Assembly (NCBI GenBank): GCA_041686345.1
Contig: JAWLEA010000002.1
Span: 5,318 to 69,317 of the forward strand
Length of the DNA: 64,000 nucleotides
Direction: 5' to 3'
Origin: Polyangia bacterium
GTDB lineage: Bacteria; Myxococcota_A; Polyangia; HGW-17
Within the stretch, counting starts at the first letter, position 1, and each line of letters starts with the position of its first letter. Shown piece by piece: positions 12,368 to 55,436 of the stretch. The notes beneath the pieces are model-generated. The model was not told the origin of the DNA. It searched no databases and saw nothing but the letters and a program-made list of their open reading frames with translations. Position numbers and translations under genes: made by a program.

Positions 12368-14554
12368 TTAAAAATCACGACGCAGGTCACTGGTCATCAA
12401 TTTGGCAACTTCTTCCAGTTCATTGGCTGCATTCATCAAACCAATAAGTTTCAATTCATTTTCAACTTTGCTGATGGTTTCAACATATTTTTGAAAATTT
12501 GAATATTTGGCATCGAAAACAATCAAATCCGTTTCCAATTTCTCATTATTTTCTTCGAGCTCAGCCAATTGTTTGTTTTGCTGGGTAATAACTTCCTGCA
12601 GCTTTTTTATCTCTTTGGAATTGAACCCATTGTCTTCTCTATCCATTTCCTTAATTTTGTAATTCATCTCATCAATTTTTGAATTGAGAATATCGATTAT
12701 ATTGTTTTTTTCCTCGATATTGGCTCTTACCTGTTCTTTCAAAGTCTGAATCTCACTTGCGAATTGATTATTGCGATCCTTTTCGAGCAACAAAGAATCT
12801 TCAATTGAATCCATATAAAATTCGCAATTATCAAGACTCCCCATAACACTGGTCAAACTATTTCTACCGGCTTCCAGCATGGTCACCTTTTTATTGAGTT
12901 GTTCTTTCAAGATTTTCAATTTGTTACTTACAACCGTATTTTGCTTTTTTTCTTCGAGAAGTGATTTTGAATAGGATTCACAACTTGATTTCAGGTTCAT
13001 AATTCTTCTTTCAAGTTCTTCAATTTTCTTTTTATTTTCAGAATTTGATTCTCTTGTGGATGATTTGTTGATTTTTGCTTCCAATTGTGCCTTGTCGGTT
13101 TTTAATTGAGCAATTCTGTCTTCAAGATCTTTCAACTTTTTGTGGAGTTCTTTGTCTTCAGAATCCTTAACTTTTCTGGTAAGGTTATCATTTTCATCTT
13201 CCAGGAAAGCAATCTTCAACTCAAATTTTGATTTTTCAGAAGCCAATTGGTCGATATTGTCTCTTGCTTTTTCCAGATTATTCTTGAGGCTTTTCATTCT
13301 GGCGGATAATTCATCATTTTCCAGTTTTAATTTTTTTACATCTTCTATGATATGATTGAAACGACTGTCCTGATTGTCTTTATTCTCGACAACATTCATA
13401 ACTTCTGCCAACTCATCGATTCTTTTGGAAAATTCAGATGAAACAGAACCTTCTTCATAACTATTGGATTTCTCAATCCTGGCCTCCAGTTTTGCATTAT
13501 TGTTTTCCAATAACTCAATGGATTCATACAGAAATTTATTTTCTTCATAGAGTTCTTCCAAATCAATTTCTTTCAGTTCTCCATCGGCATCCTTGTCTAT
13601 TTGGCTTTCTCTGGTTTTAAGCTTTTCCAGTTCATATTGCAAAGCCTGATTATCATAATTGACTTGGGTCAATTTCTTTTCCAATTCAACAATTTCTTTG
13701 GCAAGAAGGGAATTCTCATCATTGAGATTATCCCTCTGGGTTTTCAAATCCTCTATTATCTCGGTCTGTTCGGCTTTTAATTTTGCCAGATGACGATTCT
13801 TGCCAGCTATCACCTTGTTAAGAGCCTCCACTTTATTGTCTTTTTCCATCAAACTAAGTTTTAGTTTTTTATTGCGTTTATTTTGTTTTGTTGTTTTTTT
13901 CTTGAGTTTTTCATATTTTTCCTGAATTCGCTCAAAGTCTGCAGCACCTTGGCTGAGAAGATGCTTGAGGCGGGAAACGGTTGAAGGGTATTTTTGTAAT
14001 TCTTCAATCTGCTCTTCCTGTTCGGATACCTTTTCCTGAAGACTGTTAATCCGAATCATAAATTCTTCTTCTTTTTTAAGAAGATTTTCTATCCTTTCGT
14101 TAGTGGCAATAAACTTTTTTCTGTAAACATCAATATCGGCAGAATTTTCTTTAAGATTTTCATTATCACTTTCCTGCTGTAAACAATTCAACTCTGATTT
14201 TCTGAGATTATTCCCCAATTCTTTAATTTTTTTCTGCAGATTTTTGATCTTTTTTTCTTTGGCTAATATTTCTCTTTTGACTAGAGAATTGAAATTATTT
14301 TGAAAAAAATTATCAAGTTCACCGGTATATTCAAAAATTCTTTCCAGTTTATTTTGAACAAAAGCACTGATTTTTTGAGTTGATTGAGGAAGTTGTTGAT
14401 CTTTTTCAAAATCATTGTTTTGAGAATTTTTGAGAAGTAAATACTTTTTTTTCCATTCTTCTTTTTCAGCCCAGTGGAACATAGTTCTTTCCCTGGATTT
14501 TTGCAGTTCCTCAGTTAAATATTCATGATTTGAAGTATCGCTGGAATTAGTCAT
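12368..14554 (-). CDS. Large coiled-coil protein (728 aa), function unknown
   Basis: Continuous heptad repeats and K/E-rich. No Walker motifs seen. Lies directly downstream of Ser/Thr kinase 14765-15682, with only a MITE between them. Confidence 0.7.
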   Translation of the reverse strand: MTNSSDTSNHEYLTEELQKSRERTMFHWAEKEEWKKKYLLLKNSQNNDFEKDQQLPQSTQKISAFVQNKLERIFEYTGELDNFFQNNFNSLVKREILAKEKKIKNLQKKIKELGNNLRKSELNCLQQESDNENLKENSADIDVYRKKFIATNERIENLLKKEEEFMIRINSLQEKVSEQEEQIEELQKYPSTVSRLKHLLSQGAADFERIQEKYEKLKKKTTKQNKRNKKLKLSLMEKDNKVEALNKVIAGKNRHLAKLKAEQTEIIEDLKTQRDNLNDENSLLAKEIVELEKKLTQVNYDNQALQYELEKLKTRESQIDKDADGELKEIDLEELYEENKFLYESIELLENNNAKLEARIEKSNSYEEGSVSSEFSKRIDELAEVMNVVENKDNQDSRFNHIIEDVKKLKLENDELSARMKSLKNNLEKARDNIDQLASEKSKFELKIAFLEDENDNLTRKVKDSEDKELHKKLKDLEDRIAQLKTDKAQLEAKINKSSTRESNSENKKKIEELERRIMNLKSSCESYSKSLLEEKKQNTVVSNKLKILKEQLNKKVTMLEAGRNSLTSVMGSLDNCEFYMDSIEDSLLLEKDRNNQFASEIQTLKEQVRANIEEKNNIIDILNSKIDEMNYKIKEMDREDNGFNSKEIKKLQEVITQQNKQLAELEENNEKLETDLIVFDAKYSNFQKYVETISKVENELKLIGLMNAANELEEVAKLMTSDLRRDF

Positions 14555-17489: not shown

Positions 17490-19301
17490 ATGAAATATAG
17501 ACTTTTTTTAATTATCTTTCTTTTTTTCTCCTGCAAAAACAATAAACCTGAATTAAGCGAAAAAAATCAGGACAAAAAATCACAGAATACTAAAAATAAA
17601 AACAAGAACACTGCTCGAAAAAAACAAAAGAAAAACAATCAAAACAAATTGAAAAATCGTTCCATCTTTAAATTAGAACTAGATAAAAAGCTTTTTGTTT
17701 TTGACAACATGACCATTGCTCCTTCCTTTGTTTTTGAACAAAACAGCAACCAGGATATTTCAAAATTGGTTGATTTCATGAACAAATGGGAAATAAACAG
17801 TTATTCCAGTGAAAACCAAAGATTCACTGCCCGGTTTCTGGCAAAATTGATCAACGCCCTTAATAATGATAAAAGCAAAAATTACAAGAAAATCTTTAAA
17901 TTGCGGAAATATGCTCTCTACCTGATGCTTACTAAAAACATACCTAATTCTGAACACTTCCCTCTTCAAAACAAAGAATTCGACAAGTTAACCATAAATT
18001 ATTTCAACAAGGGATATAATTTCTACAGCACTTCTCTCAAAAAGCTTAAAATTAATCTGGAAAAGGTAAAAAATGTTATTTTCAACCATAAGAAAACGAG
18101 TAGAATTTCGCGTCAATCAACTCTGGTGTCGCTGCAAGATCTATTCAAAAATTCCAAATCTGAAAATAATACCAAATTAGAAACAATGATTTCATTTCTT
18201 ACCAAGGGAAATCATCAAACCAAAAAGGATTTCAGATTTTTCCCTTTTGAATTCAGTATGCACCCCCAAAAGGGAAACGCTCCAAACATCTGGCTAAAGT
18301 TTCTTTTTCCCGAAAACAATGCCGGCAGTATTAAAAATAAAATCTCATCTATTCTTTCCTCCCCTCCCTTTAATTACGGAATCGAGTTGAATAAAAATAA
18401 ATATTACGATTCTTATCTTCTGCTGGCCTCGGGAAAGTGTCCCCTTTGCTTTAAACCTGAGGATACTCCCGGCAATGCAAATCTTCCACGCAATTTAAGA
18501 AAAATGGACTGGGGAAAATATGGAGAAAAACTTATAAAAAAATTATTTGGGAATAAAGTAACTTCAACTTTTTTCAGTTGTACCCCTTCCTATCTTGATT
18601 TTGTCTCCATCTACGAGCATCTAATTGCAAATTCTAAAAATATACCGGGGATATATCTCAACAGCCAATATATGTCCAAAAATTTTAAAGATAATCAACT
18701 TCTTAAAAAAATCTGGCTTAAAGCGTTTTTGCAATATCTTTTTCTCAACAAAGAATTCAGTCGTGCTTTTTTCAAGCCGGATTGCCAGTTAATTCCAGTT
18801 TTCTTTACCGCCTACAAATACATAATACAAAGGAGTATCGGAAAAAACAATATTGAAACTTTGGCCAACGGCTATTATCTTCGAGGTCTTCTTTCCAATC
18901 ATTTACCTGAAATTACCCGCAAAAATGAAGATGATATAGAACCAACAATTGAAAAAAGTAAAAATGATAAAAAGATATCCTTTGACAAATACGATTTTTT
19001 CTTTGATCCCAAACACCATCCTGTTCTGTTTGACCAGGACAAGTTAAAAACCAGGGTTGAACAATTATTGATCCAACTTTCCGGGATGCACGGTAATCCC
19101 GGACGCTGGCTCAAGGAAAATACAATACCTTTTGACAACATGATTTCCCCAGAAAAAATCAAGGAATTGAAAGAAAAAATATTAACCAAAGAAATACCTG
19201 ATGCCAGAGTCTATCTTCCTGCCCATATTATTTTCAGGGGAGAAAGAATACATTATACCCACGCTAATGATGCCTCTGAACATTTTATTTCTTTTTATTG
19301 A
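17490..19301 (+). CDS. Hypothetical lysine-rich lipoprotein
   Basis: Lipobox IFLFFSCKNN. 603 aa with no recognisable domain. Confidence 0.6.
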   Translation: MKYRLFLIIFLFFSCKNNKPELSEKNQDKKSQNTKNKNKNTARKKQKKNNQNKLKNRSIFKLELDKKLFVFDNMTIAPSFVFEQNSNQDISKLVDFMNKWEINSYSSENQRFTARFLAKLINALNNDKSKNYKKIFKLRKYALYLMLTKNIPNSEHFPLQNKEFDKLTINYFNKGYNFYSTSLKKLKINLEKVKNVIFNHKKTSRISRQSTLVSLQDLFKNSKSENNTKLETMISFLTKGNHQTKKDFRFFPFEFSMHPQKGNAPNIWLKFLFPENNAGSIKNKISSILSSPPFNYGIELNKNKYYDSYLLLASGKCPLCFKPEDTPGNANLPRNLRKMDWGKYGEKLIKKLFGNKVTSTFFSCTPSYLDFVSIYEHLIANSKNIPGIYLNSQYMSKNFKDNQLLKKIWLKAFLQYLFLNKEFSRAFFKPDCQLIPVFFTAYKYIIQRSIGKNNIETLANGYYLRGLLSNHLPEITRKNEDDIEPTIEKSKNDKKISFDKYDFFFDPKHHPVLFDQDKLKTRVEQLLIQLSGMHGNPGRWLKENTIPFDNMISPEKIKELKEKILTKEIPDARVYLPAHIIFRGERIHYTHANDASEHFISFY

Positions 19302-19781: not shown

Positions 19782-20309
19782 TTATTGCCAGAGAATGGCG
19801 AAAACGAAGGAGAGAATAGCATAAAATTCAGGCAGTACAGCTAACAGCATAGCAATACCAACACCCATTTTTTCCTGGTTGATGGAACGAATACCTGCAG
19901 CACATACAACTCCTTGCCACCATCCGGAAAAAAGGCAGGCGATCCCGGTTGCAGTACCGGCGGCGAATATTTTAAGAAATACTTCAGGATCAAGACTGGC
20001 GAATTCTCCTTTCATTCTGCCAAAAAGCAAAATACCAACAACAAAAGAATAAAGTCCCTGAGTTCCGGGTAAAACTGAAACCAGAAGACCCATTCCTCGT
20101 TTTTCCTCTCTCATGCCGGCTACAGCTGAACCTGCAATTGAAAGTCCAATAGCACTTCCTGATAAACCTAATCCCAGCATACCAAGTCCGGCAAAGGCAA
20201 TGAAATGATTCCAGTTGAGGGCTATACCACCAACTGCTGGAAGTCCTGAATTGAAAAATGCATTAAAAAATTCATAAGTTGTGCTGATGAGAGGCTGAAG
20301 TGTGATCAC
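19782..20309 (-). CDS. ntpK: V-type ATPase subunit K (c-ring proteolipid)
   Basis: 175 aa with four hydrophobic helices. PGTQG in helix 2 and a conserved Glu in VLPEFYAIL (helix 4). Last gene of the V-ATPase operon. Confidence 0.85.
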   Translation of the reverse strand: MITLQPLISTTYEFFNAFFNSGLPAVGGIALNWNHFIAFAGLGMLGLGLSGSAIGLSIAGSAVAGMREEKRGMGLLVSVLPGTQGLYSFVVGILLFGRMKGEFASLDPEVFLKIFAAGTATGIACLFSGWWQGVVCAAGIRSINQEKMGVGIAMLLAVLPEFYAILSFVFAILWQ

Positions 20310-20377
20310 AGTATTTCTCCTTTAAATTTCTTCTACCCCGAAGAGTAAAAATAATATTAAATTTATGTTTTTAACTT

Positions 20378-22189
20378 TTATTTGCGACTTTTAAAAGGTG
20401 TATAGAGTTTGCCACCACCTTCAAAGAATTTATCATAGTACTCCAGAAAATTAAGTCTGGCCGAATGAACCAGACTTCCAATTACGGCCATGGCAAAATT
20501 GAAACTGTGGCCGAATAAAAAGATCAAGAGTGCAAAAAACCAGCCAAAATAGGGATTCGTGTTGAATACATCCAAAGCCAGAGTATTTACTATAGATGCA
20601 ATGATACCGGAACTCAGTCCAAGACCGAAAATACGGGCATAACTGACCATATCTCCGCCAACACCGACTATATTGTATAAAGCTCCAAATCCCCCCAATA
20701 TTCTCTTAAAGGGAGAACGGTGAGGTGAATTGAAAAAGAAAATCAATACTGAACAGGCTACGGCCGGCCAGAGAAAATCGGGTCTGGTCCAATTGGGCCA
20801 TATTCTGATGATTCGATAAAAAGAAATCGTAATTCCTATCCAACCGATATTAGCTACAATTAACTGATAATTTTTGCGGGTTACTGCCAGAAATATTTTA
20901 ATGATGAATCCGACAATAAGTTGAATAACTCCAAAATTCAAAGCCCAGAGCAAAAATTTGTTATAGTCGGTGGAAAACACCATCAAGGGCATTAAGTTGC
21001 GGAAATTTTGAGACCAACTGTGAGCAAATAATTGCACCCCCATAAACTGACCCATCAATAAACCGATTACCAAGGTTGAAAAACCAAGTACCTGAATCAA
21101 ACGCATGAAATACAGCCCAGTTTTATTCTCTTTAAATTTGGGAGCCAATACTCCTCCAATAATGAGAAGAAATAAACCATAAGCTGCATCAGCCAGGCAA
21201 AATCCAAAGAAAACTCCCAAGAATGGGGCTACCAGAACAGTAGGATCAAATTCTCGATAGTGAGGAGGATTGAATAATTTTATCAGTGGTTCAAAATATC
21301 TGATAATGGGTGGATTGTGCAATTTTACCGGAACTTCATCTTCTTCATCGGGATCTTCAATTACCACTGCTATAGGATCATCAGCAAATTCTTCCTCTAT
21401 TTTTGCAACCTTTTTGGCAGGAGTAAATCCCATCAGTGCAAAAAGAGTATCTTCATCTCTGATCCCACCTAACACCTTCGCATGATCGTATTTTGTCTGT
21501 AAATTTTTGAGATGTTTTTCGATTACATCTTTAAACTGGCAGATCTCAAAATATTTTTTCTGAGATTTTTTCTGTTTTTCCCGAAGCTTTTCCAAACGGG
21601 CTTTGATTTCACTCAGTGAATTGTCAGGAAGGGAAGGAGTTTCAAAGGGTACTTCCGGAACTTCATCTTTGAAAGCAACAATAAAACCGGTGTCCCTTGC
21701 ACCTCTCAATTTGACTTGCTTATACCAGAATGCGGCTTCCAGAAAATTTTTGCCTTTGTCCTTAATTTCTTTGGAAGATGCATGATAGAACTTTATTTGA
21801 ACTCCTCTTTTTGCTAGAAATTCAATATCTTTTCTTTCAAAATCACCCCAGCGCAGCAGTTGTTTTTCTTCTTTTTCCAAACCTGCAATTTCTTGCTCCA
21901 GAGAGTTTTTGAGATTGACTATGGTTTCATATTTTTCTACAAGTTCTTCACCTTTTCCTTTATGTATCTGTTTTATATCCTGATCTGACTTTTTGATTGC
22001 ATGTTTTAATTTTTTAACAATTCTTTCAACTTTTGAAACTTCTGCAGCAAGTTCTCCCGGAGGATCAACCGGGTTTTCCGCCATCTCCTTGACATGGAGT
22101 ACCCCCAGTTCCTGAAGTTTGTCAACCGTCATTTCCCTGGAATGATCAGGACCGACGATATAAACTTTTTTCATTGTTACAAGGGCCAT
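20378..22189 (-). CDS. ntpI: V-type ATPase subunit I (a subunit)
   Basis: 603 aa. A hydrophilic N-terminal half with coiled coil, then a polytopic C-terminal half. Its position in the operon supports the call. Confidence 0.85.
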   Translation of the reverse strand: MALVTMKKVYIVGPDHSREMTVDKLQELGVLHVKEMAENPVDPPGELAAEVSKVERIVKKLKHAIKKSDQDIKQIHKGKGEELVEKYETIVNLKNSLEQEIAGLEKEEKQLLRWGDFERKDIEFLAKRGVQIKFYHASSKEIKDKGKNFLEAAFWYKQVKLRGARDTGFIVAFKDEVPEVPFETPSLPDNSLSEIKARLEKLREKQKKSQKKYFEICQFKDVIEKHLKNLQTKYDHAKVLGGIRDEDTLFALMGFTPAKKVAKIEEEFADDPIAVVIEDPDEEDEVPVKLHNPPIIRYFEPLIKLFNPPHYREFDPTVLVAPFLGVFFGFCLADAAYGLFLLIIGGVLAPKFKENKTGLYFMRLIQVLGFSTLVIGLLMGQFMGVQLFAHSWSQNFRNLMPLMVFSTDYNKFLLWALNFGVIQLIVGFIIKIFLAVTRKNYQLIVANIGWIGITISFYRIIRIWPNWTRPDFLWPAVACSVLIFFFNSPHRSPFKRILGGFGALYNIVGVGGDMVSYARIFGLGLSSGIIASIVNTLALDVFNTNPYFGWFFALLIFLFGHSFNFAMAVIGSLVHSARLNFLEYYDKFFEGGGKLYTPFKSRK

Positions 22190-22201
22190 TTTACCTCCTA
22201 A

Positions 22202-22819
22202 TCAACCAGTAGCCTGTTGTGCTTTGGCTTCAATCTTGTTTTTGGCAATTTTTGCTCTGCAAACTGCAGCTGTTTGCTGATCACCAAGATAAACCTTGAT
22301 CTTTCTGATATTTTCTTTGGTTTTGGGAATCAGCACTTTTTCGTACAAATTGATTCGCTGGGTGGTTTTGGTAAGTTCTTTTTGCAGAAGCTCATGCTTT
22401 TTCTGAATGATTTTAACTTTTTCAATAGCTGACAAGGCCTTTTTGATAAAATCTACAGCTGCATCAAAAATCCAAGGAGTAGCAACCAGAGACCAAGGCT
22501 TTTCCTTAAATTTTATCTCATCAAATTGGGGAACCTTGACTCCGGCAATATTTACTAAACTGCTTTTCACTTCGTCGATAGATATCAGGTCCTTGATTTC
22601 ATTGGACAAGGTGGCAATTTTACCCTTCCAACTGGAAACATCTTCCAAGAGTGTTTGTTTTTCTCTGCGTGCTTCTTGTATTTCTTTTTTCACATCCCTG
22701 ACCTCAGTCTGCAATTGCTGCTTTCTGAGTTCCAAGGTGGGTAGAAACTCCTGATAAAGCTTCAAAGATTGAGTCTGTTCCCTTAATGAGTTTTTGTTGA
22801 GTTTGACTTGTTCACTCAT
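22202..22819 (-). CDS. ntpD: V-type ATPase subunit D
   Basis: 205 aa coiled-coil protein. N-terminus LNKNSLREQTQSLKLYQEFLPTLELRKQQL is typical of subunit D. Confidence 0.8.
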   Translation of the reverse strand: MSEQVKLNKNSLREQTQSLKLYQEFLPTLELRKQQLQTEVRDVKKEIQEARREKQTLLEDVSSWKGKIATLSNEIKDLISIDEVKSSLVNIAGVKVPQFDEIKFKEKPWSLVATPWIFDAAVDFIKKALSAIEKVKIIQKKHELLQKELTKTTQRINLYEKVLIPKTKENIRKIKVYLGDQQTAAVCRAKIAKNKIEAKAQQATG

Positions 22820-22823
22820 CTAA

Positions 22824-24149
22824 TTATTTCTCCGGCCAATGTTGATCAAGTATCTCCTTCTTAATTCCAACTTCTTTGGCACTGAAACATTCCGCCATGG
22901 TTTTCCATCCCATATCCAAGGCATCGTTTAAACTGACATCCACACTGAGATCCATGAACCTGTCCTGGAAAAGATCGGCATATTTGAGAAATTTCTCATC
23001 TTCTTCGGTTTTTTCAAAACCCATGGATATTTTCTTTTTGGATTCCAGTGCTTTGGCATAAAGCCTGATCATGGAATTCATAACAGCTCCGTGATCTTTC
23101 CTCGTTACTTTGCCGATAACAAGCTGTTTCAAACGACTGAGAGACCCGAAGGGGTTGATAACTCCATCATTCAAGTAATACTGTCCCTCTGTAATATAAC
23201 CGGTGTTGTCAGGAACCGGATGAGTGACATCTCCACCCGGCATGGTAGTAACTGCCAAGATAGTAATGGAACCTGCACCATCAAAATCAACAGCTTTCTC
23301 ATATCGGGAAGCCAAATCACTATAAAGGGAACCGGGATAACCAAGATTTGACGGAACCTGTTCCATGGCGACGCTGATCTCTTTGAGAGCATCGGCAAAG
23401 GCGGTGAGATCGCTGAGTAATACCAGAACTCTCTTACCTTCAATTCCGAATTTTTCAGCTACTGCCAGTGCCATATCAGGTACCAGCAATCTTTCAACCA
23501 CTGGATCTGCGGCAGTATGGATAAACATTACGGTTCTGTCCATGATACCGCCGTCTTCGAATTTTCTCCTGAAACCAATGAATTCATCAAATTTAAGCCC
23601 GATTCCGCCTAAAATTACCACATCGGCATCTGCCTGCAGGGCAATTCTGGACAAAAGTTCATTGTAGGGCTCACCAGGAGTCGAAAAAATTGGGAGTTTC
23701 TGACTTTCAACCAAAGGATTGAATATATCAATCATGGGGATTCTGGTTTCAATGAAATTGTGAGGTACTACCCTTTTGACGGGATTAACCGAAGGACCGC
23801 CGATATTAACTTCTTCGGCGTTTTCTATTTCGGGTTTTCCATCCATGGGAACTCCACTGCCGGTAAAAATCCGCCCGAGGAGGTTGTCCGAATAACCAAC
23901 CCGCATGGGATGACCGAGAAACCTGACTTTGGCTATATTGGAAAGCCCCTTTGCTCCGGAAAAAACCTGGAGAGAAACTTTGCTTCCTTCAATTCTGATA
24001 ACCTGAGCCAGTGAAACTTCCCCATTGGTATTGGTTATGGATGCCAACTCACGATAGGAAACTCCTTCGGCTTCCAATTCAATAATATCACCAATAATAT
24101 TTTTTATTCTGGTATATTCTTTAAACAATCTTTCCTCCTCCGGAAACAA
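22824..24149 (-). CDS. ntpB: V-type ATPase subunit B
   Basis: 441-aa A/B ATPase fold lacking a Walker A motif. It is 3' of subunit A and overlaps it by 29 nt. Confidence 0.85.
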
Positions 24150-25899
24150 TTATCTCTTCTATTTCACCAGTTAATTCACTGTATTTATCACTGTCTGTCT
24201 CCACGTAATTTTTCTGATAAAACTTGTCCTGCAGATCGGTAAAGAATTTGCGGGCTTCTTTTTTATCTTCCAAATCAAAAGGAGTACTTAAAACTTTGTA
24301 TAATAATTTGAAATCTTTGGCCTGTCTGCTGAGATCGGCAGCACAATCGATATCATCAAAGGCATTCTGTTGCAGATAGGTAAAGTCGACCAGTTCGGAT
24401 TTGAGATATTTAACGAGATCATCAACATTGACGCCCTCTTCTCCGACAACTGTCATCATTTTTCCTACTTCCGCTCCGATACTCAACAGATCCTTGGTTT
24501 TTTTAACCATTTTAGTCCAATCAGGATCCATTTGTTCATTGAGACTGTCTGCCATTTGACCGATGTAAAGGGAATAGGAATCAAGGGGATCAATAGCCGG
24601 ATATTTGCGTTCATCGGAACGCTTCCTGCTGAGACCGAGAAAAGCACCCACAACCTTGAGGGTTGCCTGGGTAACAGGTTCTTCAAAATTACCTCCGGCG
24701 GGTGAAACCGTACCGATTAAGGTGACAGCTCCCTTTTCATTGTTGTGTAATTTAACCAGGCCTGCTCTTTCATAAAGTCCGGCAATGCGGCTTTCCAGAT
24801 AAGCCGGGAAAGCTTCTTCACCGGGAATCTCTTCGAGGCGACCTGACATCTCGCGCAAGGCCTGAGCCCATCTGGAGGTGGAATCGGCGAGAACCAGAAC
24901 ATCAAGTCCCATCTCGCGATAATATTCAGCCAGAGTAATTCCGGTATATACTGATGCTTCACGAGCAGCAACAGGCATGGAAGATGTATTACAGATGATG
25001 ATGGTTCTATCCATCAGAGAACCACCTGTTTGTGGATCTTCCATCTCGGGGAATTCGTTGATAAGTTCCACAACTTCACCAGCACGCTCACCGCAGGCAA
25101 CTACAATAACAACATCCGCATTGGAAAATTTGGAGAGAAGATGTTGCAATACTGTTTTACCGGCTCCGAAAGGTCCCGGAATACAAGCAGTACCACCCCT
25201 GCTGACAGGAAACATTGTGTCAATCAAACGCTGTTTGGTGGTAAGCAGTTCTTCGGGAAAAATACGTTGCTTGTAGGCTTTGATGGCTTTTTTGACCGGC
25301 CATTCCTGTAGCATCATCACCTTGATGACTTTGCCGTCAAGTTCAAGCTCGGCCACAACATCTTTAACTTTGTATTCGCCTTTGGAAGAAATCTTTTTAA
25401 CCGTGGCAACACCAAGCATTCCCAAAGGAACCATAATTTTATGACTGAGATGATGTTCAGGTACTTCACCCAACCATTGTCCAGCTCTGACTTTATCGCC
25501 CTGTTTGACCAAAGGAGTGAATTCCCATTTTTTATCATGATCTACCGGTTCTTTGTACTGCCCTCTTTGAAGAAAAAAACCGTCTTTATTATCAAGCAGT
25601 TCCAGAGGATTCTGTAAACCATCATATATTTCACCGAGAATTCCCGGGGCAATACCCACAGCAAGCATTTCTCCGGTAAAATTGACCTTCATGCCAACGG
25701 TAATTCCGGTTGTATCTTCAAAAACCTGCATATAACATTGTTGACCCAGGACTTTAATGACTTCGGATTTAAGACTCATTTCACCAACCAGAACAAAAGC
25801 AACCTCGTTTTGAACAACACTGCCTTCGTCTATCTGTACGGTAACCATATTACCATTAATTCCGACCACGTGACCTGTTGTGGAAGAAGAATCGATCAA
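24121..25899 (-). CDS. ntpA: V-type ATPase catalytic subunit A
   Basis: Walker [10 protein letters not shown]. 592 aa with the non-homologous insert region typical of A subunits. Confidence 0.9.
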
Positions 25900-26612
25900 G
25901 CGAACACCTCCAACATTTTTTCTATATCGGCATCTTCATCTGTTTTCCATGAATCAATCACCATGGCTTTGGCAAGATATGCCAGCACCGCGTCTATGGA
26001 AAAAGGATCTATGCCTTCGAGTTCCAAATAATAAGCAAGTCGAGCCTTATCTATGACAAGTTCTCTTTCTTGCGGATCTTTAGCTTCAGATGCTCTCAAA
26101 ACCAGAGAGCCATACTGAAAACTGTTTTTACCATTAAAAATTTGTATTTTACCTTCTTCGACACCTAGTTCTTTGGCTCTAACTGCAGCTATAGCATTGC
26201 GAAGTCCAATTTCCATTTCCGTGTACCCTTGGAGAAATTTGGAATTGTGTTTTCTGGATATTTCGATAAGAGCATTGAAATAGGACTCCCAAAGTTTTTT
26301 AAGCAGTATTTCTTGTTGAACCACACCCTGTTCCATTCTGAAAATATTATCAAGAAAAGGAGGGAGATCCAATTTGTTTTCAAATTCCTCCTTGGATATG
26401 GTTCCCGATTCCCTGAAATGATCTTTATCAAGCAAAACAGCTTCGGCATTGGCAGTATCTACAAACCAGAGAATACTGCTGACAAGCTCTTTATCGGACC
26501 CTTCAACTTCAGTGAATATAAGTTGGGAAATTTTGGATAAAGATGGAGTTGAAGTTGATTTGAGATCTCCTTTTACAGGTGGCAGGGATGTCATCAATCT
26601 ATAGTATTTCAA
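25896..26612 (-). CDS. V-ATPase operon protein of the DUF2764-like type (occupies the C/F/G slot in Bacteroidetes-type operons)
   Basis: 238 aa. Lies between subunits E and A, with a 4-nt overlap onto A. This matches the E, DUF2764, A, B, D, I, K operon architecture known from Bacteroidetes. Confidence 0.55.
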   Translation of the reverse strand: MKYYRLMTSLPPVKGDLKSTSTPSLSKISQLIFTEVEGSDKELVSSILWFVDTANAEAVLLDKDHFRESGTISKEEFENKLDLPPFLDNIFRMEQGVVQQEILLKKLWESYFNALIEISRKHNSKFLQGYTEMEIGLRNAIAAVRAKELGVEEGKIQIFNGKNSFQYGSLVLRASEAKDPQERELVIDKARLAYYLELEGIDPFSIDAVLAYLAKAMVIDSWKTDEDADIEKMLEVFA

Positions 26613-26669
26613 AAAAAACTCCTTGAAAGGTTATAAGGTGAGTTTGTGTGAATCTGACAAAACAAGAGA

Positions 26670-27338
26670 TCAGGAATCTTTACCTTCACCGGAATTTTCT
26701 TTTTTTTCTTCTTTTGTTTTTTCTGAGTAAAAAAGTTCCCTGAATTTGGGAGAAATAAATTTAACAAAAATTTCACGAAATCCCTTGTCGGTAAGATCGA
26801 AAACAAAGCCTTTTTCTTTGGGACCGGCTTTGAAACCAAACCTGATATCATCATCGAATTCAACTATGGTTTTGCCGCCGGCTATGAGCATTTTGATTCT
26901 GGCAGCTATGGAGCTTCCCAGTTTCTTCTGCATTTCCGGGGACAGAACAAGTTGGATATCGGAATTTTTGTATCCACTTTTGACAAAACCCTTTACAACT
27001 TCAAGAATGACCTTTTCAAGGAATTTTGTCTGGTTGAGCTCTTTTTCGAGGGATTCATCCACCGCCGGAATAACCAATGCTTCTTCCACAGAACTTCTGA
27101 AAGCACCAAGGGCAACCTTGGCACTTCTTTGTAATTCTGTATCAAGCTGGTTTTTAATAGTTTCAGCCTCTTTCTTAGCTTCATCAACCGTCTTTTTAGC
27201 TTTCATCTCGGCTTGAATTTGAATATCTTCAGCCTTGGCCTCGGCATCCTGAATGATTTTATCAGCCTTTTCTTCGGCCGCTTCAATCCCCTCTTTTTTT
27301 AATTTTTTGATTACTGATTTTAATGAATCGCTAGCCAT
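26670..27338 (-). CDS. ntpE: V-type ATPase subunit E
   Basis: 222 aa. An N-terminal long charged helix (KADKIIQDAEAKAEDIQIQAEMKAKK) and a C-terminal globular part. First gene of the operon. Confidence 0.75.
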   Translation of the reverse strand: MASDSLKSVIKKLKKEGIEAAEEKADKIIQDAEAKAEDIQIQAEMKAKKTVDEAKKEAETIKNQLDTELQRSAKVALGAFRSSVEEALVIPAVDESLEKELNQTKFLEKVILEVVKGFVKSGYKNSDIQLVLSPEMQKKLGSSIAARIKMLIAGGKTIVEFDDDIRFGFKAGPKEKGFVFDLTDKGFREIFVKFISPKFRELFYSEKTKEEKKENSGEGKDS

Positions 27339-27438
27339 GAAACCTCCATTTATTTCAGCTGAACTATAAACGTGAACAAAAATACATTCAAGCTGAAAAT
27401 TAAATTTTTAAATTAACCAGTTCCCTTGAAACAACATA

Positions 27439-29562
27439 TTACTCAGATCCGATTTCAGCATAAATTTTTATGGAAGAAAGAATGGCATCTTTCTTTTTCA
27501 AGATCACCTCTCTGCAATTTTCATCGAATTCAAATCTCACCCCTGTACTTTGTTCACCTTTTCCTCTGAAATAATAGTAGATAAAATTATCCTGACTGTT
27601 TTTCCCTTTTATCTCCTGCCAATCGCCAAACTTGCCTATTGAAAGCAGATATTGATTTTCACTCAGGAAATCAAAAAGTTTCCTGGCGTCTTTTCCCCTG
27701 ATTATAAACATCGTATTATATCCTCCACAATAAGGGGAATAAAATATATTGAGCCGGTTGTTTTTGTTGGAAAATACATGTTTGTCTTCAACTAACTTGC
27801 CCTCAACTATTTTATGAGCCCAATAGTCAGGGTATTTCAAGCTTATACTATCTTCCTTTATTTTGATTTTTTTCCAATTTTCTGAGGAAGCAGTGGCATA
27901 AACTTCATATCCTGTCCACCCCATCAATCCCAGAGAAATCACAAAAAGAACCAGGGTAAGAGCTTTTCTGAAAGCTGATTTTTCAGTGGCAGCTCCCAAA
28001 ATTACAGCTGTAATTACTCCTCCCAAAAATCCACCGATGTGAGCAGCATTATCGATCATTCTGATGGAAAAACCCAATACCAGATTAAACAAAAGGATCA
28101 TAACCAGAAAAGAAAATTGTTTTTTTCTCCATTCTTCGGGAAAACGGTTCTTGTAAAAAAACAGCATGGCCATAGTGGCTCCCACCACTCCAAAAACTGA
28201 TGAGGAAAAACCGATTGAAACTCCGGCACCATACATCAGGGAAGAAAGAATATTACCGCTCAAGCCCGAAACAATAATAATGACCCAAGTTTTAAGAGCA
28301 CCATAATGGGGTTCTATCAAACGACCGAAAATCCAGGTGATATAAAGGTTGAAAAAAATATGGATAAAATTGGCGTGAAGAAACATGGCTGACACATGTC
28401 GCCACCACTGGCTGGAAATAGAAAGAGTTCTGAAATTACCACCCAGATTGTAGAGGGTATGCATATCCGAAGGCGAACCGTAGAAATGCTGACCAATGAA
28501 AACCAGGGAATTGAAAACAAGAAAAAACCAGGTAGCTTTCAAGAATCTGTTTTTGGAACCAATTTCAGAAATTTTTTCGTAATTGTCTTTTATTTTTTCC
28601 AGATTTTCTTTTTGAGTCGAGTCCAACTCAGGAAAGGATTTGACTCCTGAATTAATTTTTTCTGTTGCCAACTTGTGGTAAAGGGGAAAGTTTTTTTTCA
28701 ATTTTTTGGGAAAGGTTAGAACCTTTTCAGCTTTGGCTGTTTTATTATCGTTGAGCAGAGCAATTCCATACCAATATCTGCGCAAAGCCGCCGGGAAAAA
28801 GGTATCTTTTGAATCGAGAGGCAATAGCGCTTTTTTTAATATTCCTGGTTTGCCGTAAGCGGCCAAAATAATAGTTTGAGCCGAAAATAAAGCTCTTTTG
28901 ACAACCGGATCTTCAGAATCTTCATCCAGTTTCTCATAAAACTCCCAGAGCAGATCTTCCCGACCCAACTCAAAGGCTGCTTTCATGAGAGAGACATAAA
29001 CGGATGGTTTTGGAGTAACTTCTCCTGCTTTCAGATATTTATCGTAAAATTCCAAAGCTTTTTTCCATCTGGTTGAAAAAACATAGAGTTCCACCAGACT
29101 TTCAGCCAGTAATATTTTTTTGATGGCATCGTCGGTGCGATGAAGCTCCTGCTCCAATCCTCCTGAAATATCTACAACTTCACCTTTATTAGCTTTGAGC
29201 AGTTTGGAAAAATGTTTGATTTGAACAGCAACTTCCGTGCTGGGTTGAAAAATGTATTTCAATTGCAGAATACGAGCAGCCCTTGACCAGTCATAACGAT
29301 AAACAGCGGCAGCAATAAAACGATTCAAAATTGCCGGAACAATTACGGCAAAGAGAAAAATTCCGATTCCAAGCCAGGCTGACAGTGAATTCACCCCGGA
29401 AGATGCATTGAATGAATAAAGAATCAACCCGAAATCCACTGCCAAGATGGTGTTGTATATGGGATCCTTGGCAAAACCTCTTTTAATTTTGGCATAAAGA
29501 ATAATTCCAAGATTGACGGCTATAATAATAAAAAGAAGCTGGAACAAACTGATATCAAACAA
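27439..29562 (-). CDS. Rhomboid-family intramembrane serine protease with N-terminal TPR-like region and C-terminal extracytoplasmic domain
   Basis: Rhomboid core: HANFIHIFFNLY, GFSSSVFGVVGA (GxSG nucleophile), AHIGGFLGGV (catalytic His). 707 aa, multi-domain. Confidence 0.8.
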   Translation of the reverse strand: MFDISLFQLLFIIIAVNLGIILYAKIKRGFAKDPIYNTILAVDFGLILYSFNASSGVNSLSAWLGIGIFLFAVIVPAILNRFIAAAVYRYDWSRAARILQLKYIFQPSTEVAVQIKHFSKLLKANKGEVVDISGGLEQELHRTDDAIKKILLAESLVELYVFSTRWKKALEFYDKYLKAGEVTPKPSVYVSLMKAAFELGREDLLWEFYEKLDEDSEDPVVKRALFSAQTIILAAYGKPGILKKALLPLDSKDTFFPAALRRYWYGIALLNDNKTAKAEKVLTFPKKLKKNFPLYHKLATEKINSGVKSFPELDSTQKENLEKIKDNYEKISEIGSKNRFLKATWFFLVFNSLVFIGQHFYGSPSDMHTLYNLGGNFRTLSISSQWWRHVSAMFLHANFIHIFFNLYITWIFGRLIEPHYGALKTWVIIIVSGLSGNILSSLMYGAGVSIGFSSSVFGVVGATMAMLFFYKNRFPEEWRKKQFSFLVMILLFNLVLGFSIRMIDNAAHIGGFLGGVITAVILGAATEKSAFRKALTLVLFVISLGLMGWTGYEVYATASSENWKKIKIKEDSISLKYPDYWAHKIVEGKLVEDKHVFSNKNNRLNIFYSPYCGGYNTMFIIRGKDARKLFDFLSENQYLLSIGKFGDWQEIKGKNSQDNFIYYYFRGKGEQSTGVRFEFDENCREVILKKKDAILSSIKIYAEIGSE

Positions 29563-29673
29563 TTTTTACGAGACCTTTCGGTAATTTGAAAATGGTATCA
29601 ACTATTACTTTTGGTTTGGGAAAATTGACCGGCGAAAACAACCGAATTAATGAAAAAAACAAATCTGAAAACT

Positions 29674-30450
29674 TCAGGACTCTGAATGCAATTGGCCTGA
29701 CAATTCCTTGAGCTTTTTTTTGAAACGAAAAACAATTACTGCCAAAGAAACAATTACAACAACCGCCAAAGCACTAAAGATGATTAAAACCAAGGGGGGA
29801 AGATAAAAGAAACTACTTGCAGTTGAACTGCTGGTTTTTGCTTTTCTCAGATCAGCCAACTGAATAATTACAGATACACTGCCAGCATCAAGCTCAGCTA
29901 TGGAACCGGCAACCAGAGTCTGAACATCAGTGGGTTTCATTTGAAATTCTTCTTCGTTTACTTTGAGAACAACCGAAGCCTTTTCAGGAACCAGCTTTTT
30001 GTTGGTGTGACCGATGTTTGTATTGTTCTGGGGAATAGCAAAGTGGATGCGGGCAAAATGAATACCTGGAAGTCTCTCCATTGTTTTAGCCAATTCTCCG
30101 GCCAGGGCAATATAATAGCGGTTGATTTTATTTCCCGGATTAGGGAGCAAACCTGATTTTTTGGTTACTAAATCGTAATCCCGGTGTTTATCTGAAGGTA
30201 TATCAAGTTTATTCAGAATAGAAACAGCTTGTGCGGCATCACTTTTGTCAACTTCAATTCCATAATGTCCCTTGCGCTCGTCTCTGATGAATTTTTCGGC
30301 TTTTATCCCTCTGTTTTGCAGAACAGTCAATACTTTGTTGGCTTCTTTTTCAGAAAGTTCGTTAAAAAGATCTGCCTTGCAGCCGATAACAGTAAAACTG
30401 AGCAGTATAAAAATCCAAAAAAATAATTTATTAATTTTTACAGGAGCCAT
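29674..30450 (-). CDS. YscJ/EscJ/HrcJ (SctJ)-family lipoprotein, orphan
   Basis: Lipobox VIGCKADL. LSEKEANKVLTVLQNRGIKAEK...DKSDAAQAVSILNKL...KSGLLPNPGNKINRYYIALAGELAKTMERLPGIHFARIHFAIPQ aligns along the whole length with Yersinia YscJ ([33 protein letters not shown]...ESDVAQAIDILKRKG...[45 protein letters not shown]). It has a C-terminal TM anchor. 258 aa, the same size as SctJ. Confidence 0.75.
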   Translation of the reverse strand: MAPVKINKLFFWIFILLSFTVIGCKADLFNELSEKEANKVLTVLQNRGIKAEKFIRDERKGHYGIEVDKSDAAQAVSILNKLDIPSDKHRDYDLVTKKSGLLPNPGNKINRYYIALAGELAKTMERLPGIHFARIHFAIPQNNTNIGHTNKKLVPEKASVVLKVNEEEFQMKPTDVQTLVAGSIAELDAGSVSVIIQLADLRKAKTSSSTASSFFYLPPLVLIIFSALAVVVIVSLAVIVFRFKKKLKELSGQLHSES

Positions 30451-30625
30451 TAATCATAACCTGAAATAATCGTACAGAAAACTTGCCAATTCCCCTCTCA
30501 AAAGAGAAAATATCCGTCCTTCAAGAATTTCACCCAATGATAAAAAACACAAATGCCTGATTAAATAAAGTATATCTTACAATTATACGGGGAAATTTGG
30601 CGGACGGCCAATAAAGCTCCCTGTC

Positions 30626-31108
30626 CTATTTATCGAGTTTTCTCACGTAATCAAGAAAAGATGATTTGTTTTCCATGATGTTGTGGTATTTTTCTCTGGA
30701 CATATTGCCCTTGCGACGACCTCGTTTTCTCTGATTGCCAGATTTATTCCGGTTTTTTCTTCGATAATAACGATGTCCTCCATATCTTCTGCCCAAACCT
30801 TCAGCTATAAGCTCTTTAGCCAGAGTTTCAGGTTCAACTTCATCATTTTTGGCTAAAAATGCCAATTCCCGGTAAAGAGATTTTGACATTTCTATTTTGA
30901 AATCACCATCCCATTCATTTTCATCAATAGGGGTGGGAGGATGTTTGAGGGATTCAATCTTTTCTTCAGTTGATTTATCCAAAAGTTCAATAACTTCTTC
31001 CCAAGTTTCACCTTGAACTGTACACTCCGGCAACTCCGGCACTCTTCCTTCATACTTTTCTTCTTCAGGATTATAATTTACAACAATGCGATAATGTCTA
31101 TGTTTCAT
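30626..31108 (-). CDS. HicB-like (UPF0150) antitoxin-fold protein with RHH domain and arginine-rich tail
   Basis: N-terminal YRIVVNYNPEEEKYEGRVPELPECTVQGETWEEVIELL matches the HicB fold. FKIEMSKSLYRELAFLAKNDEVEPETLAKELIAEGL looks RHH-like. C-terminal RRKNRNKSGNQRKRGRRKG. No HicA partner in either flank. Confidence 0.65.
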   Translation of the reverse strand: MKHRHYRIVVNYNPEEEKYEGRVPELPECTVQGETWEEVIELLDKSTEEKIESLKHPPTPIDENEWDGDFKIEMSKSLYRELAFLAKNDEVEPETLAKELIAEGLGRRYGGHRYYRRKNRNKSGNQRKRGRRKGNMSREKYHNIMENKSSFLDYVRKLDK

Positions 31109-31278
31109 GTTAGAGAAAATCCTCCCTTTTTAACCATGGATTTCTCCTGGTCAGGTGTTTATTTGTTGAAATCTTCAATTGCTTTCAGATTTGTAATTTC
31201 TTGTCTTCACAACAGAAACTGAAAAAATTAAGAAAATGGATGGTATTAATGAAATACAGACCAACCGATTTTCATTTT

Positions 31279-31297
31279 AATTCCCGTCCCAGATTAA
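31279..31297. repeat. Solo MITE-end remnant
   Basis: AATTCCCGTCCCAGATTAA matches the TIR core. Confidence 0.35.
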
Positions 31298-31619
31298 TTC
31301 ATAAGGTTAATTTTGGAAATGTCAATATAATTGTAGTTCAGTCTGTACAATCAGATTAATGCATCCCGTATATCTGCGTGTCTGCGAAAGAACTGCCTGA
31401 GTTTTTTCTTGAAAAAATTTTAATTTTATATAACTTTAATCTTCTTGTGGATATCAATGAAAACAAACTTGAAATCTACAACAATCAATATTATTCATAA
31501 TTTTGTTCAACCACAACAAAATTACAGAAAGTACAAAATTCCAGTCCAATTTTCCCAATCTGCTTCAAAATTTCTGGAATTTTGAAACTGGAATAATCAA
31601 TAGCAAGTACAGGTGAAAC

Positions 31620-32183
31620 ATGGCTCAAAGTTCTGATCTCAGAAAAAATTTGAAAATCCTCATTGACGACGAACCCTATGTTGTTTTCGAAGTTAATTTT
31701 GTAAAACCGGGAAAGGGAACTGCCTTCTACAAATGCCGAATTCGCAATCTCATCACCGGAGCTGTTCTCGACAAAACCTGGAGATCAAGCGACAAAATTG
31801 AACTGGCTGATACTGAAGTCAGAGAACTTGAATACATCTATCAGGATGATCTGCATTATGTTTTCATGGATACCGAAACCTATGAACAAACAAGAATGAG
31901 CGGTGAGCTTCTTGACGAAGACAAATATTATCTCACAGACAACCTCAGGGTTGAAGTTCTTTTCTTTAACGACAAACCGGTAGGAATTGAACTCCCATAC
32001 TTTGTCGAACTTCAGGTAACCAAATGTGAACCCGGATTCAAAGGTGACACCGCTCAGGGAGCCACCAAACCTGCAACCGTAAGCACCGGACTCGAAGTTG
32101 ATGTTCCCCTGTTTGTAGAAGAAGGCGAATGGCTGAAAATCGATACCAGAACCGGTGAATATGTAGAAAGAATCCAAAAATAA
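31620..32183 (+). CDS. efp: Elongation factor P
   Basis: 187 aa. KPGKG loop (VKPGKGTAFYKCRI) with the lysine at the beta-lysylation position. Three OB-like domains. Confidence 0.9.
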   Translation: MAQSSDLRKNLKILIDDEPYVVFEVNFVKPGKGTAFYKCRIRNLITGAVLDKTWRSSDKIELADTEVRELEYIYQDDLHYVFMDTETYEQTRMSGELLDEDKYYLTDNLRVEVLFFNDKPVGIELPYFVELQVTKCEPGFKGDTAQGATKPATVSTGLEVDVPLFVEEGEWLKIDTRTGEYVERIQK

Positions 32184-32184
32184 A

Positions 32185-33357
32185 ATGAAGCCTGTTCTGG
32201 CCAGGATTATTTCTGCCGCTCCTCCTCAGGCGCAAAATCATATCCGTATTTACCAACTTCAAAGTACTCCCTCCCCACCATATAAAACAGGAGACTGGGT
32301 TTATCTCGACCACATATCCGGCAGCGATAAATATCGGATAAACAGCATGGCTCAACCCACTCGAAACAATTTTCCTTGCTTCGAATGGAAAAGATTGCAT
32401 CAACAACTCGATAACGGCCTGAATCGTCTCGAAATATTGCAACTCCGAAGTCGAATCCTGCATCAGATCAGAGAATTTTTTCGCACCAAAGGACATTTGG
32501 AAGTAGAAACTCCTCTACTGGTTCCTTCCCCGGGAGTGGAAACCCATCTCAAGGCCGTAAAAACTGAGGATTACTTTCTTTCCCCTTCTCCGGAATTTCA
32601 GATGAAAAGGCTGCTGGTCGGAGGTATCGGCTCTATCTATCAAATTGCCCATTCTTTCCGGGCAGGTGAAACAGGAAACAGGCACAATCCTGAATTTACC
32701 ATGCTGGAATGGTACTCAACCCAAATCAACGGAGAAGAACTGCGCCGAGAAACTGAAGAATTAATTTCCTTTTTGCAGGCCAAGCTCGAACTTCCCTGTC
32801 CCCTGCCTGAACCTCCTTATCGCAGAATCACCATGGAGCAAGCTTTTGCTGAGCATGCCGGGGTAACAGATCTGCGAGCCAATCCCAGACAGATGTTTGC
32901 CGAAGCCGGCATCCTGGAAAAATACCGGGAAGAAACAACTTGGGAAGAAGGTTTTTTTGAAATTTTCATAGAAAAAGTAGAACCGGCTTTAACAAGTGAG
33001 GGGCCGGTATTTCTTACCCAGTGGCCTCTTGAATTTGCCTCCCTCTCCAAACCTCTGGAGTCAAATTCCAAAGTTGCCGACCGCTTTGAGTTTTTTGCTG
33101 AAAATCTGGAAATAGCCAATGGTTTTGCCGAACTTATCGAACCAGATATCCAACGCAAACGTTGTCTGGAAGACTTGGAATATCGCAAAAAACACAAACT
33201 TGAACTCTATCCCCTTGACGAAAAATTTCTGAATTCGCTCAAGGAGGGAATGCCTCCCACCAGCGGTATTGCTCTGGGTTTGGATCGTTTGATCATGCTT
33301 TTTGCCGGAACCAGCAAAATAGAAAACGTACTTACTTTTTCTCACTCTGAACTTTAA
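32185..33357 (+). CDS. epmA: EF-P Lys34 lysyltransferase EpmA (PoxA/GenX); the true start is probably ATG 32347
   Basis: Class II aaRS catalytic core without an anticodon-binding domain. LEVETPLL, SFRAGETGNRHNPEFTMLEWY (motif 2), GIALGLDRLIML (motif 3). Immediately 3' of efp. Confidence 0.8.
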   Translation: MKPVLARIISAAPPQAQNHIRIYQLQSTPSPPYKTGDWVYLDHISGSDKYRINSMAQPTRNNFPCFEWKRLHQQLDNGLNRLEILQLRSRILHQIREFFRTKGHLEVETPLLVPSPGVETHLKAVKTEDYFLSPSPEFQMKRLLVGGIGSIYQIAHSFRAGETGNRHNPEFTMLEWYSTQINGEELRRETEELISFLQAKLELPCPLPEPPYRRITMEQAFAEHAGVTDLRANPRQMFAEAGILEKYREETTWEEGFFEIFIEKVEPALTSEGPVFLTQWPLEFASLSKPLESNSKVADRFEFFAENLEIANGFAELIEPDIQRKRCLEDLEYRKKHKLELYPLDEKFLNSLKEGMPPTSGIALGLDRLIMLFAGTSKIENVLTFSHSEL

Positions 33358-55414: not shown

Positions 55415-55436
55415 ACCGCAATAAGGAGAAACAGAT

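Follow-up and report, generated by a model that had tools for sequence, protein, structure and literature searches.

Why does a Myxococcota genome carry an inner-membrane ring protein of type III secretion in a region with no other recognizable type III gene? Rings of the SctJ and FliF families are regarded as dedicated type III parts, either of type III secretion systems (T3SSs) or of flagella. The 64,000-nucleotide stretch analyzed here (hereafter, the window; positions 5,318 to 69,317 of contig JAWLEA010000002.1, assembly GCA_041686345.1) comes from a low-GC Myxococcota metagenome-assembled genome (MAG) of the class Polyangia. At 29674..30450, on the minus strand, it features an open reading frame (ORF) with an ATG start for a 258-aa SctJ-family (YscJ/PrgK/EscJ-like) inner-membrane lipoprotein. 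The identical protein is recorded from MAG GCA_051747125.1, labeled "Myxococcota bacterium." We find that the gene represents a conserved subfamily that travels with a HicB-like partner gene, and we ask below what such a pair could be doing outside of a secretion locus.

By sequence, topology features, and predicted fold, the protein is a bona fide member of the SctJ family. The Pfam match anticipated by the initial annotation, PF01514 (YscJ_FliF), spans residues 27-197 and scores well above its gathering cut-off (77.8 bits versus 24.4; E = 1.2e-21). The best NCBIfam model is the SctJ equivalog TIGR02544, at 132.6 bits (E = 1.4e-38) against a cut-off of 161.95, and the FliF model TIGR00206 reaches 34.3 bits against a cut-off of 129.75. 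Because all Myxococcota-type SctJ-like proteins tested score alike with TIGR02544 (120-140 bits), we attribute the sub-cut-off value to lineage divergence rather than decay. A phmmer search of the PDB recovers MxiJ (6rwx, E = 2e-13) over residues 11-238 and PrgK (E = 6e-12), followed by weaker matches to EscJ (E = 5e-9) and FliF fragments (E = 1.6e-6); identity to solved SctJ structures is 20-23%. The end-to-end alignment initially claimed for YscJ is thus reproduced, or nearly so, with MxiJ, PrgK, and the YscJ-named TIGR02544 profile. An AlphaFold2 monomer model, built from an alignment of 98 homologs with a mean predicted local distance difference test (pLDDT) score of 87.8, consists of two beta-alpha-beta-beta-alpha modules (residues 25-81 and 105-198), a linker between them, and a long C-terminal helix (219-257). 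When this model is compared to the PDB with Foldseek, PrgK, MxiJ, and EscJ structures rank first (2y9j, 8axn, 6rwx, 1yj7, and 5tcp; E = 1e-12 to 1e-10; target-normalized TM-scores of 0.64-0.75) and the ring-building motif (RBM) domains of FliF rank next, which upholds the predicted YscJ fold.

The protein also displays the full anatomy of an SctJ lipoprotein, with all of the parts listed in the initial annotation: a signal peptide with lipobox cysteine, two RBM domains, and a C-terminal transmembrane helix. The hydropathy profile has two hydrophobic segments, one at residues 6-24 that terminates at Cys24 and one at residues 221-239. The lipobox V-I-G-C (residues 21-24; 30379..30390, minus strand, as for all parts of this gene) marks the end of the signal peptide, and Cys24, the predicted lipidation site, is the sole invariant column across the 98 SctJ-like sequences. 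Ring-building domain 1 (residues 25-81; 30208..30378) is modeled at pLDDT >90 as strand 25-32, helix 34-46, strands 51-57 and 62-68, and helix 69-81, and matches PrgK 19-92 (4w4m) at a TM-score of 0.9. Ring-building domain 2 (residues 105-198; 29857..30138) is modeled as helix 105-125, strands 130-138 and 157-164, helix 173-183, and strand 192-198, and matches PrgK domain 2 (4oyc) and RBM2 of FliF. Just ahead of it, alignments place the SctJ-typical linker motif G-L-L-P-x-P at residues 100-105. The C-terminal transmembrane anchor (approximately residues 219-243; 29722..29796) coincides with the second hydropathy peak (score 3.2), lies within the C-terminal helix of the model, aligns with the transmembrane region of MxiJ, and is followed by a short, basic cytoplasmic tail that is poorly kept among relatives. 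Residues that are near-invariant across the family (E34, N38, G129, A133, R134, H136, and others) are all retained.

The most consistent feature of the locus is the gene that precedes this one. Directly upstream and on the same strand (30626..31108), with a good Shine-Dalgarno sequence (GGGAGG), lies an orphan gene for a 160-aa protein that combines a HicB fold with a ribbon-helix-helix (RHH)-like region. The initial annotation correctly named it, together with a rhomboid protease gene, as a neighbor, but treated it as unrelated, and this does not hold: a HicB-like gene is immediately upstream of the SctJ-like gene, in the same orientation, in 15 of 15 distinct loci. These loci cover SctJ-like identities of 30-80% and GC contents of 38-70%, and their other neighbors all differ between clades. 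The pairing persists even where SctJ-like identity falls to 30-36% and genomic GC content is 65-70%, and five short loci contributed by a metagenome scan all fit the pattern. The two genes lie 6-54 nt apart in most loci; the gap widens to ~175-183 nt in the window and in the sister species. Of the pair, the HicB-like protein is the better conserved, with 37-58% identity across clades and a ratio of nonsynonymous to synonymous substitution rates (dN/dS) of 0.036, compared to 0.16 for the SctJ-like gene against its 80%-identical ortholog. The latter value indicates purifying selection. The pairing recasts the "isolated copy" of the initial annotation: the gene is isolated from T3SS genes, as stated, but it belongs to a conserved subfamily that always sits behind a HicB-like gene.

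That subfamily is distinct and is seen here only in Myxococcota-labeled MAGs and metagenome contigs. A phmmer search that exhaustively covered 1.84 billion representatives returned 2,314 matches to the SctJ-like protein; the closest comprise one at 80% identity, three at 41-42%, and two at 32-34%, beyond which lie generic SctJ-sized proteins at ~30%. With a profile built from the close set, 12 members score at least 298 bits, and no other sequence exceeds 165 bits. Neighbor joining of 108 sequences unites the 17 subfamily members in a single clade (bootstrap 95/100), which splits into a low/mid-GC clade (bootstrap 81; hereafter, the low-GC clade) and a high-GC clade (bootstrap 100); distances from the subfamily are 1.3-1.45 to the nearest outgroups and 2.2-2.3 to MxiJ and PrgK. 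All named sources are Myxococcota or "Deltaproteobacteria" MAGs, including Haliangium- and Kofleriaceae-labeled assemblies, and neither the named subfamily members nor the named HicB-like matches include a Myxococcus homolog. Within its neighborhood, the SctJ-like gene evolves fastest, with 80% identity compared to 87-98% for neighboring genes.

Relative to the SctJ proteins of injectisomes (YscJ, PrgK, MxiJ, and EscJ), the present protein is alike in length, lipobox cysteine, two RBM domains, G-L-x-P-x-P linker, and C-terminal transmembrane helix. It differs in that its gene is not found among sctD, sctI, sctK, sctL, or other T3SS genes, a HicB/RHH gene always precedes that gene, and the protein scores under the equivalog cut-off and falls in a clade of its own. 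FliF, the flagellar MS-ring protein, shares RBM1/RBM2 homology through PF01514 as well as the PDB match noted above, but it is a protein of ~550 aa with two transmembrane helices, one of them N-terminal, RBM3, a FliG-binding C-terminus, and no lipobox, whereas the SctJ-like protein is 258 aa with a lipobox.

The absence of type III neighbors extends well beyond the pair. Among 50 window ORFs scanned against Pfam, which include nearly all of those of at least 120 aa, we detected no T3SS or flagellar component, and related loci whose flanks were annotated likewise have no such family within ±10 kb. The genes that would accompany sctJ in a T3SS cluster (sctD, I, K, L, N, Q, R, S, T, U, and V) are therefore missing from both sets of sequence, and the initial statement that the gene lacks T3SS or flagellar neighbors stands for the full 64 kb and for the available flanks of its relatives. 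One candidate for SctD, an FHA-GGDEF diguanylate cyclase (9565-10620, minus strand), was rejected because its "Yop-YscD_cpl" match is to a generic FHA domain; no SctD homolog was found in the window. This arrangement contrasts with Myxococcus xanthus, a cultured member of the same phylum with a known needle-less T3SS (T3SS*; PMC3459982, PMC10433427), in which an SctJ ring already operates without secretin or needle. In the Myxococcus loci (the "Myxo" non-flagellar T3SS; MXAN_2434-2464), sctJ is embedded in a cluster with sctD, sctI, sctQ, sctRSTUV, sctN, and sctL (PMC3459982; PMC10433427), and a lone sctJ consequently departs from the organization so far described in the phylum, a distinction drawn from locus descriptions rather than from sequence.

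The nearest outgroups of the subfamily provide a second view of lone sctJ-like genes. We viewed four outgroup loci, one of which (L026, 2.3 kb) is too short to judge; the three with usable flanks all fall outside T3SS clusters. Locus L024 (3477-5542) combines SctJ with a FliA/WhiG-like sigma factor and an SctI-like rod protein of 124 aa, and the genes that come next are unrelated. Locus L032 (8792-10786 of a 447-kb contig) encodes a FliA-like sigma factor homologous to that of L024 beside SctJ, with nothing else of a T3SS within ±10 kb, and in L025 SctJ lies behind two small ORFs. The sigma-linked genes of L024 and L032 resemble the window's gene in being its nearest neighbor-joining relatives, in having no T3SS gene within ±10 kb beyond the SctI-like gene of L024, and in adjoining a transcription factor gene; they differ in that the partner is sigma-28-like (plus SctI-like in L024) rather than HicB/RHH, and in a profile score of 123-165 bits. 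Lone SctJ-like genes paired with a transcription factor gene seem to be recurrent in high-GC Myxococcota-like genomes. The pattern cuts both ways, however: lone SctJ-like genes recur, yet the SctI-like gene of L024 suggests that T3SS parts may be scattered.

What the partner does is best approached through its domains. The HicB-like protein is comprised of an N-terminal HicB/UPF0150 domain, a strand-helix-helix region (residues 70-108) typical of RHH proteins, a basic disordered linker, and a conserved C-terminal helix, Y-H-x-I-M-E-N-K-x-S-F-L-x-Y-V-R. It matches TTHA1756 (2yzt) in a profile search (E = 1.7e-6), and its AlphaFold2 model (pLDDT 80) has HicB antitoxins as its top Foldseek matches in the PDB, namely HicB3, Escherichia coli HicB, and Burkholderia pseudomallei HicB, at probability 1.0 with E-values of only 6e-3 to 2e-2. 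The model and the strand-helix-helix pattern together point to a HicB fold joined to a DNA-binding domain, the latter probably of the RHH type. No HicA-like ORF of at least 30 aa is apparent in 30451-31619, where translations were read by eye and not with hidden Markov models, and the 6-54-nt gaps of relatives leave no room for hicA between the two genes. The wider HicB-like family has 61 members, appears to be uncharacterized, and includes many proteins with long RGG/GRG-rich tails; its motif takes the form Y-H-x-I-M-E-[ND]-[KR]-A-x-F-[LI]-E-Y-V-R. A more distant tier (L020-L023), in which such tails are frequent, has no adjacent SctJ-like gene and instead neighbors PP2C phosphatases and PATAN (PatA_N/DUF4388) proteins. 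A FHA-PATAN gene also occurs two genes upstream in L019 (6388-7350). We considered the cytoplasmic tail of the SctJ-like protein as a dock for the HicB-like C-terminal motif and rejected the idea, as the tail is short and unconserved and the motif is kept in members without an SctJ-like neighbor. We infer instead that the HicB-like protein is a DNA-binding regulator or nucleoid-type protein rather than a structural partner, and that the SctJ-like gene joined its transcription unit. In the metagenomic sister-species locus L003 (7989-8356), the HicB-like gene is split over two frames, with a called gene of only 44 aa, which reflects a frameshift or an error of assembly; downstream, the SctJ-like gene is intact.

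On the other side of the SctJ-like gene, the neighbors are specific to clade. In the window, the gene immediately downstream encodes a 707-aa rhomboid intramembrane protease (27439..29562, minus strand; PF01694, E = 8e-31), as initially annotated, with the catalytic motifs GxSxxxG (GFSSS) and AHxxG (AHIGG). Three extra N-terminal transmembrane helices and a ~250-aa helical region precede a 6+1 transmembrane core and a ~150-aa C-terminal soluble domain, which should be periplasmic if the predicted 6+1 topology is correct. The protein is unusually large for a rhomboid, and identity across the low-GC clade is 32-41%. A rhomboid gene follows the SctJ-like gene in seven of the eight low-GC-clade loci, and its translational coupling in two of them (a 2-nt gap in L004 and a 1-nt overlap in L007) supports co-expression in this clade. 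Locus L006 has neither the rhomboid nor the V-type ATPase operon (see below) beside its HicB-SctJ pair. Loci of the high-GC clade read RCC1-repeat protein, HicB-like, SctJ-like, M50 peptidase, ScpA, ScpB, and RluB. The M50 gene follows the SctJ-like gene in all seven complete loci, but it is translationally coupled to scpA/scpB and not to the SctJ-like gene, and synteny in this clade is shallow (M50 proteins are 74-96% identical). Within the literature library searched, we found no paper that links SctJ/YscJ/EscJ/PrgK with HicB, or SctJ with a rhomboid.

We tentatively propose, with somewhat less than even confidence, that the protein is a T3SS-derived ring or scaffold lipoprotein that has been uncoupled from its secretion locus and is co-expressed with the HicB/RHH protein and, in this clade, with the large rhomboid. 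Under such a scheme, the protein would be exported by Sec, lipidated on Cys24, and anchored in the inner membrane by both its N-terminal lipid and its C-terminal transmembrane helix, so as to display the two RBM domains on the periplasmic face, where it would oligomerize through them at the inner membrane. The HicB/RHH and SctJ-like genes pass on together as a cassette of two, set among housekeeping genes and not in a T3SS locus, and the SctJ-like gene would be expressed with, or controlled by, the HicB/RHH protein. In the low-GC clade, the SctJ-like protein may work with the co-transcribed rhomboid, as either a platform that organizes the protease or a single-pass substrate that the protease trims; we regard a functional link between the SctJ-like protein and a protease as hypothetical. 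A bolder form of the proposal is that the HicB/RHH cassette encodes a free-standing inner-membrane and periplasmic SctJ ring that belongs to no secretion system and organizes or gates another membrane machine, here the giant rhomboid; we consider this unlikely, if worth stating. The "undescribed envelope-spanning assembly" of the initial annotation goes further than the locus allows, in that nothing encoded there reaches the outer membrane.

The sporulation channel of Firmicutes offers a conceptual parallel. SpoIIIAG and SpoIIIAH form RBM-fold rings outside of any T3SS and near intramembrane-protease signaling. They differ from the present protein in phylum and in Pfam family, and no sequence match to them was found here; the analogy is conceptual only.

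Several observations weigh against the proposal. A needle-less T3SS or flagellar locus without its own sctJ or fliF may sit outside of the 64-kb window; such a T3SS is present in cultured Myxococcota, and anaerobic Myxococcota MAGs from Zodletone are described with "Type III (partial)" and flagellar genes. SctJ rings are not known to assemble without SctD and the export gate. An SctI-like gene lies beside SctJ in L024; because an inner rod depends on an export apparatus, this hints that genomes of this kind can have their T3SS genes dispersed. The link to the rhomboid is confined to one clade; it is missing from L006, and in the high-GC clade the M50 peptidase stands in its place. Likewise, the HicB-like family occurs without an SctJ-like neighbor, so its C-terminal motif is not tied to SctJ, and the pairing could reflect regulation or nothing more than synteny.

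These points converge on the strongest alternative, in which the gene supplies, in trans, the SctJ ring of a needle-less or other T3SS whose sctV, N, R, S, T, U, Q, and D are encoded at other sites in the genome, an arrangement found where T3SS loci are scattered. We view it as a credible possibility, though one that still falls short of probable. The canonical anatomy and the retention of all family-wide conserved residues are what a working SctJ ring would feature, and the M. xanthus system makes a T3SS elsewhere that uses this SctJ realistic, all the more as parts of the needle-less T3SS have been reported from Myxococcia, Polyangia, and Bradymonadia and the system is reported as conserved within myxobacteria. 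L024, with only its FliA-like sigma factor, SctI-like gene, and SctJ, implies split T3SS loci in related genomes, and the partial T3SS of the anaerobic MAGs also favors this alternative. On the other hand, sctJ is within the cluster in the characterized Myxococcus loci, and scattered chlamydial T3SS loci still hold several core genes each (Abby & Rocha), whereas the present gene has kept its HicB-like and housekeeping neighbors even as identity falls to 30%, and neither the window nor the ±10-kb flanks contain a T3SS gene. Furthermore, among activated-sludge Myxococcota bins, those of the Myxococcaceae were the only ones to carry 50% or more of the M. xanthus T3SS homologs.

A third account holds that the protein is a domesticated lipoprotein whose RBM domains have ceased to form a closed ring. 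It would function singly or in small oligomers, for example by regulating the intramembrane protease encoded next to it, by serving that protease as an adaptor, or by being its substrate; the protease is the rhomboid in the window and the M50 peptidase among high-GC members. An intramembrane protease gene does directly follow the SctJ-like gene in both clades (seven of eight and seven of seven complete loci, respectively), the C-terminal transmembrane helix is type-I-oriented with small residues and a proline ahead of it, and rapid evolution relative to the neighborhood is compatible with such a role. Rhomboid and M50 proteases are unrelated, however, the high-GC M50 gene is coupled to scpA/scpB in a context of shallow synteny, L006 has no protease beside the pair, and conservation of both the G-L-x-P-x-P linker and the RBM cores speaks for an ability to oligomerize that has been kept; overall, we find this account improbable. 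Finally, the notion of a functionless, decaying remnant of a lost T3SS kept by chance synteny, for which the sub-cut-off TIGR02544 score and the lack of nearby partner genes might be cited, is largely refuted by the conservation data, as the ORF is intact in every locus and under purifying selection, the subfamily is kept across clades 30 GC points apart, and TIGR02544 scores are similar in all Myxococcota-type SctJ-like proteins tested.

The intergenic region between the HicB-like gene and the divergent efp (31109..31619) probably holds the promoter of the cassette. Eight of 14 related loci (L007, L009, L011, L012, and L016-L019) have a TTGACA-type -35 element ~40-90 nt ahead of the HicB-like start codon, and in five of those eight it is followed by a GTGTATCGG-like element; the window's own 31109-31438 has no clear copy of the TTGACA or GTGTATCGG elements. 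A promoter and terminator consensus scan of 26500-31700 gave nothing above shuffles, which leaves operon boundaries unproven, and the sequences ahead of the HicB-like gene in related loci share no convincing operator or palindrome. Beyond this region lies efp with, directly behind it, a 390-aa class II LysRS-like (EpmA/PoxA-type) gene that has a ~80-aa N-terminal extension; the two genes span 31620-33357 on the plus strand, and all of the low-GC clade conserves this efp-epmA pair ahead of the HicB-like gene.

Downstream of the rhomboid and co-directional with it, the window encodes a V-type ATPase operon of seven genes (E-like, DUF2764/C, A, B, D, I, and K by Pfam; 19782..27338, minus strand). 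The initial annotation's "Bacteroidetes-type" V-ATPase is confirmed by the DUF2764 gene, here in a Myxococcota MAG. The first gene of the operon (222 aa) has no V-ATPase E match in Pfam and only weak coiled-coil matches to DivIVA and RNase_Y_N. This context is kept only in the low-GC clade, where the operon is downstream of the rhomboid in L004, L010, L011, L012, and L013. We also considered the operon as a disguised T3SS ATPase complex and rejected the idea, given that membrane subunits I and K are present besides A, B, and D.

Other genes of the window include an Rnf operon, Ser/Thr kinases, a PP2C phosphatase, histidine kinases, and ProRS. The RNase P class A RNA (52156-52499, minus strand; RF00010, 287 bits) is the sole Rfam family above its gathering score. 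Five large ORFs (259-728 aa) have no Pfam match (139-1218, 7719-9506, 12368-14554, 17490-19301, and 54635-56534); one ORF without a match, of 595 aa, directly follows a LamB-like porin and an alpha-amylase and could be part of a glycan-uptake locus.

In summary, a HicB-linked and selected SctJ subfamily without T3SS genes would show that the ring module is reusable; alternatively, the needle-less T3SS of myxobacteria would be far more dispersed than the Myxococcus model suggests. Either outcome bears on the evolution of non-flagellar T3SSs because Myxococcales systems are at the base of their tree (PMC3459982). For genome annotation, "partial T3SS" calls in Myxococcota MAGs may stem in part from lone SctJ-family genes. 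The cassette provides a two-gene target that is available in cultivable relatives, such as Haliangium-like strains. If the protein does form a free-standing ring, the ring-building fold would have gained a new role in Gram-negative bacteria, one that parallels the SpoIIIA rings of sporulation.

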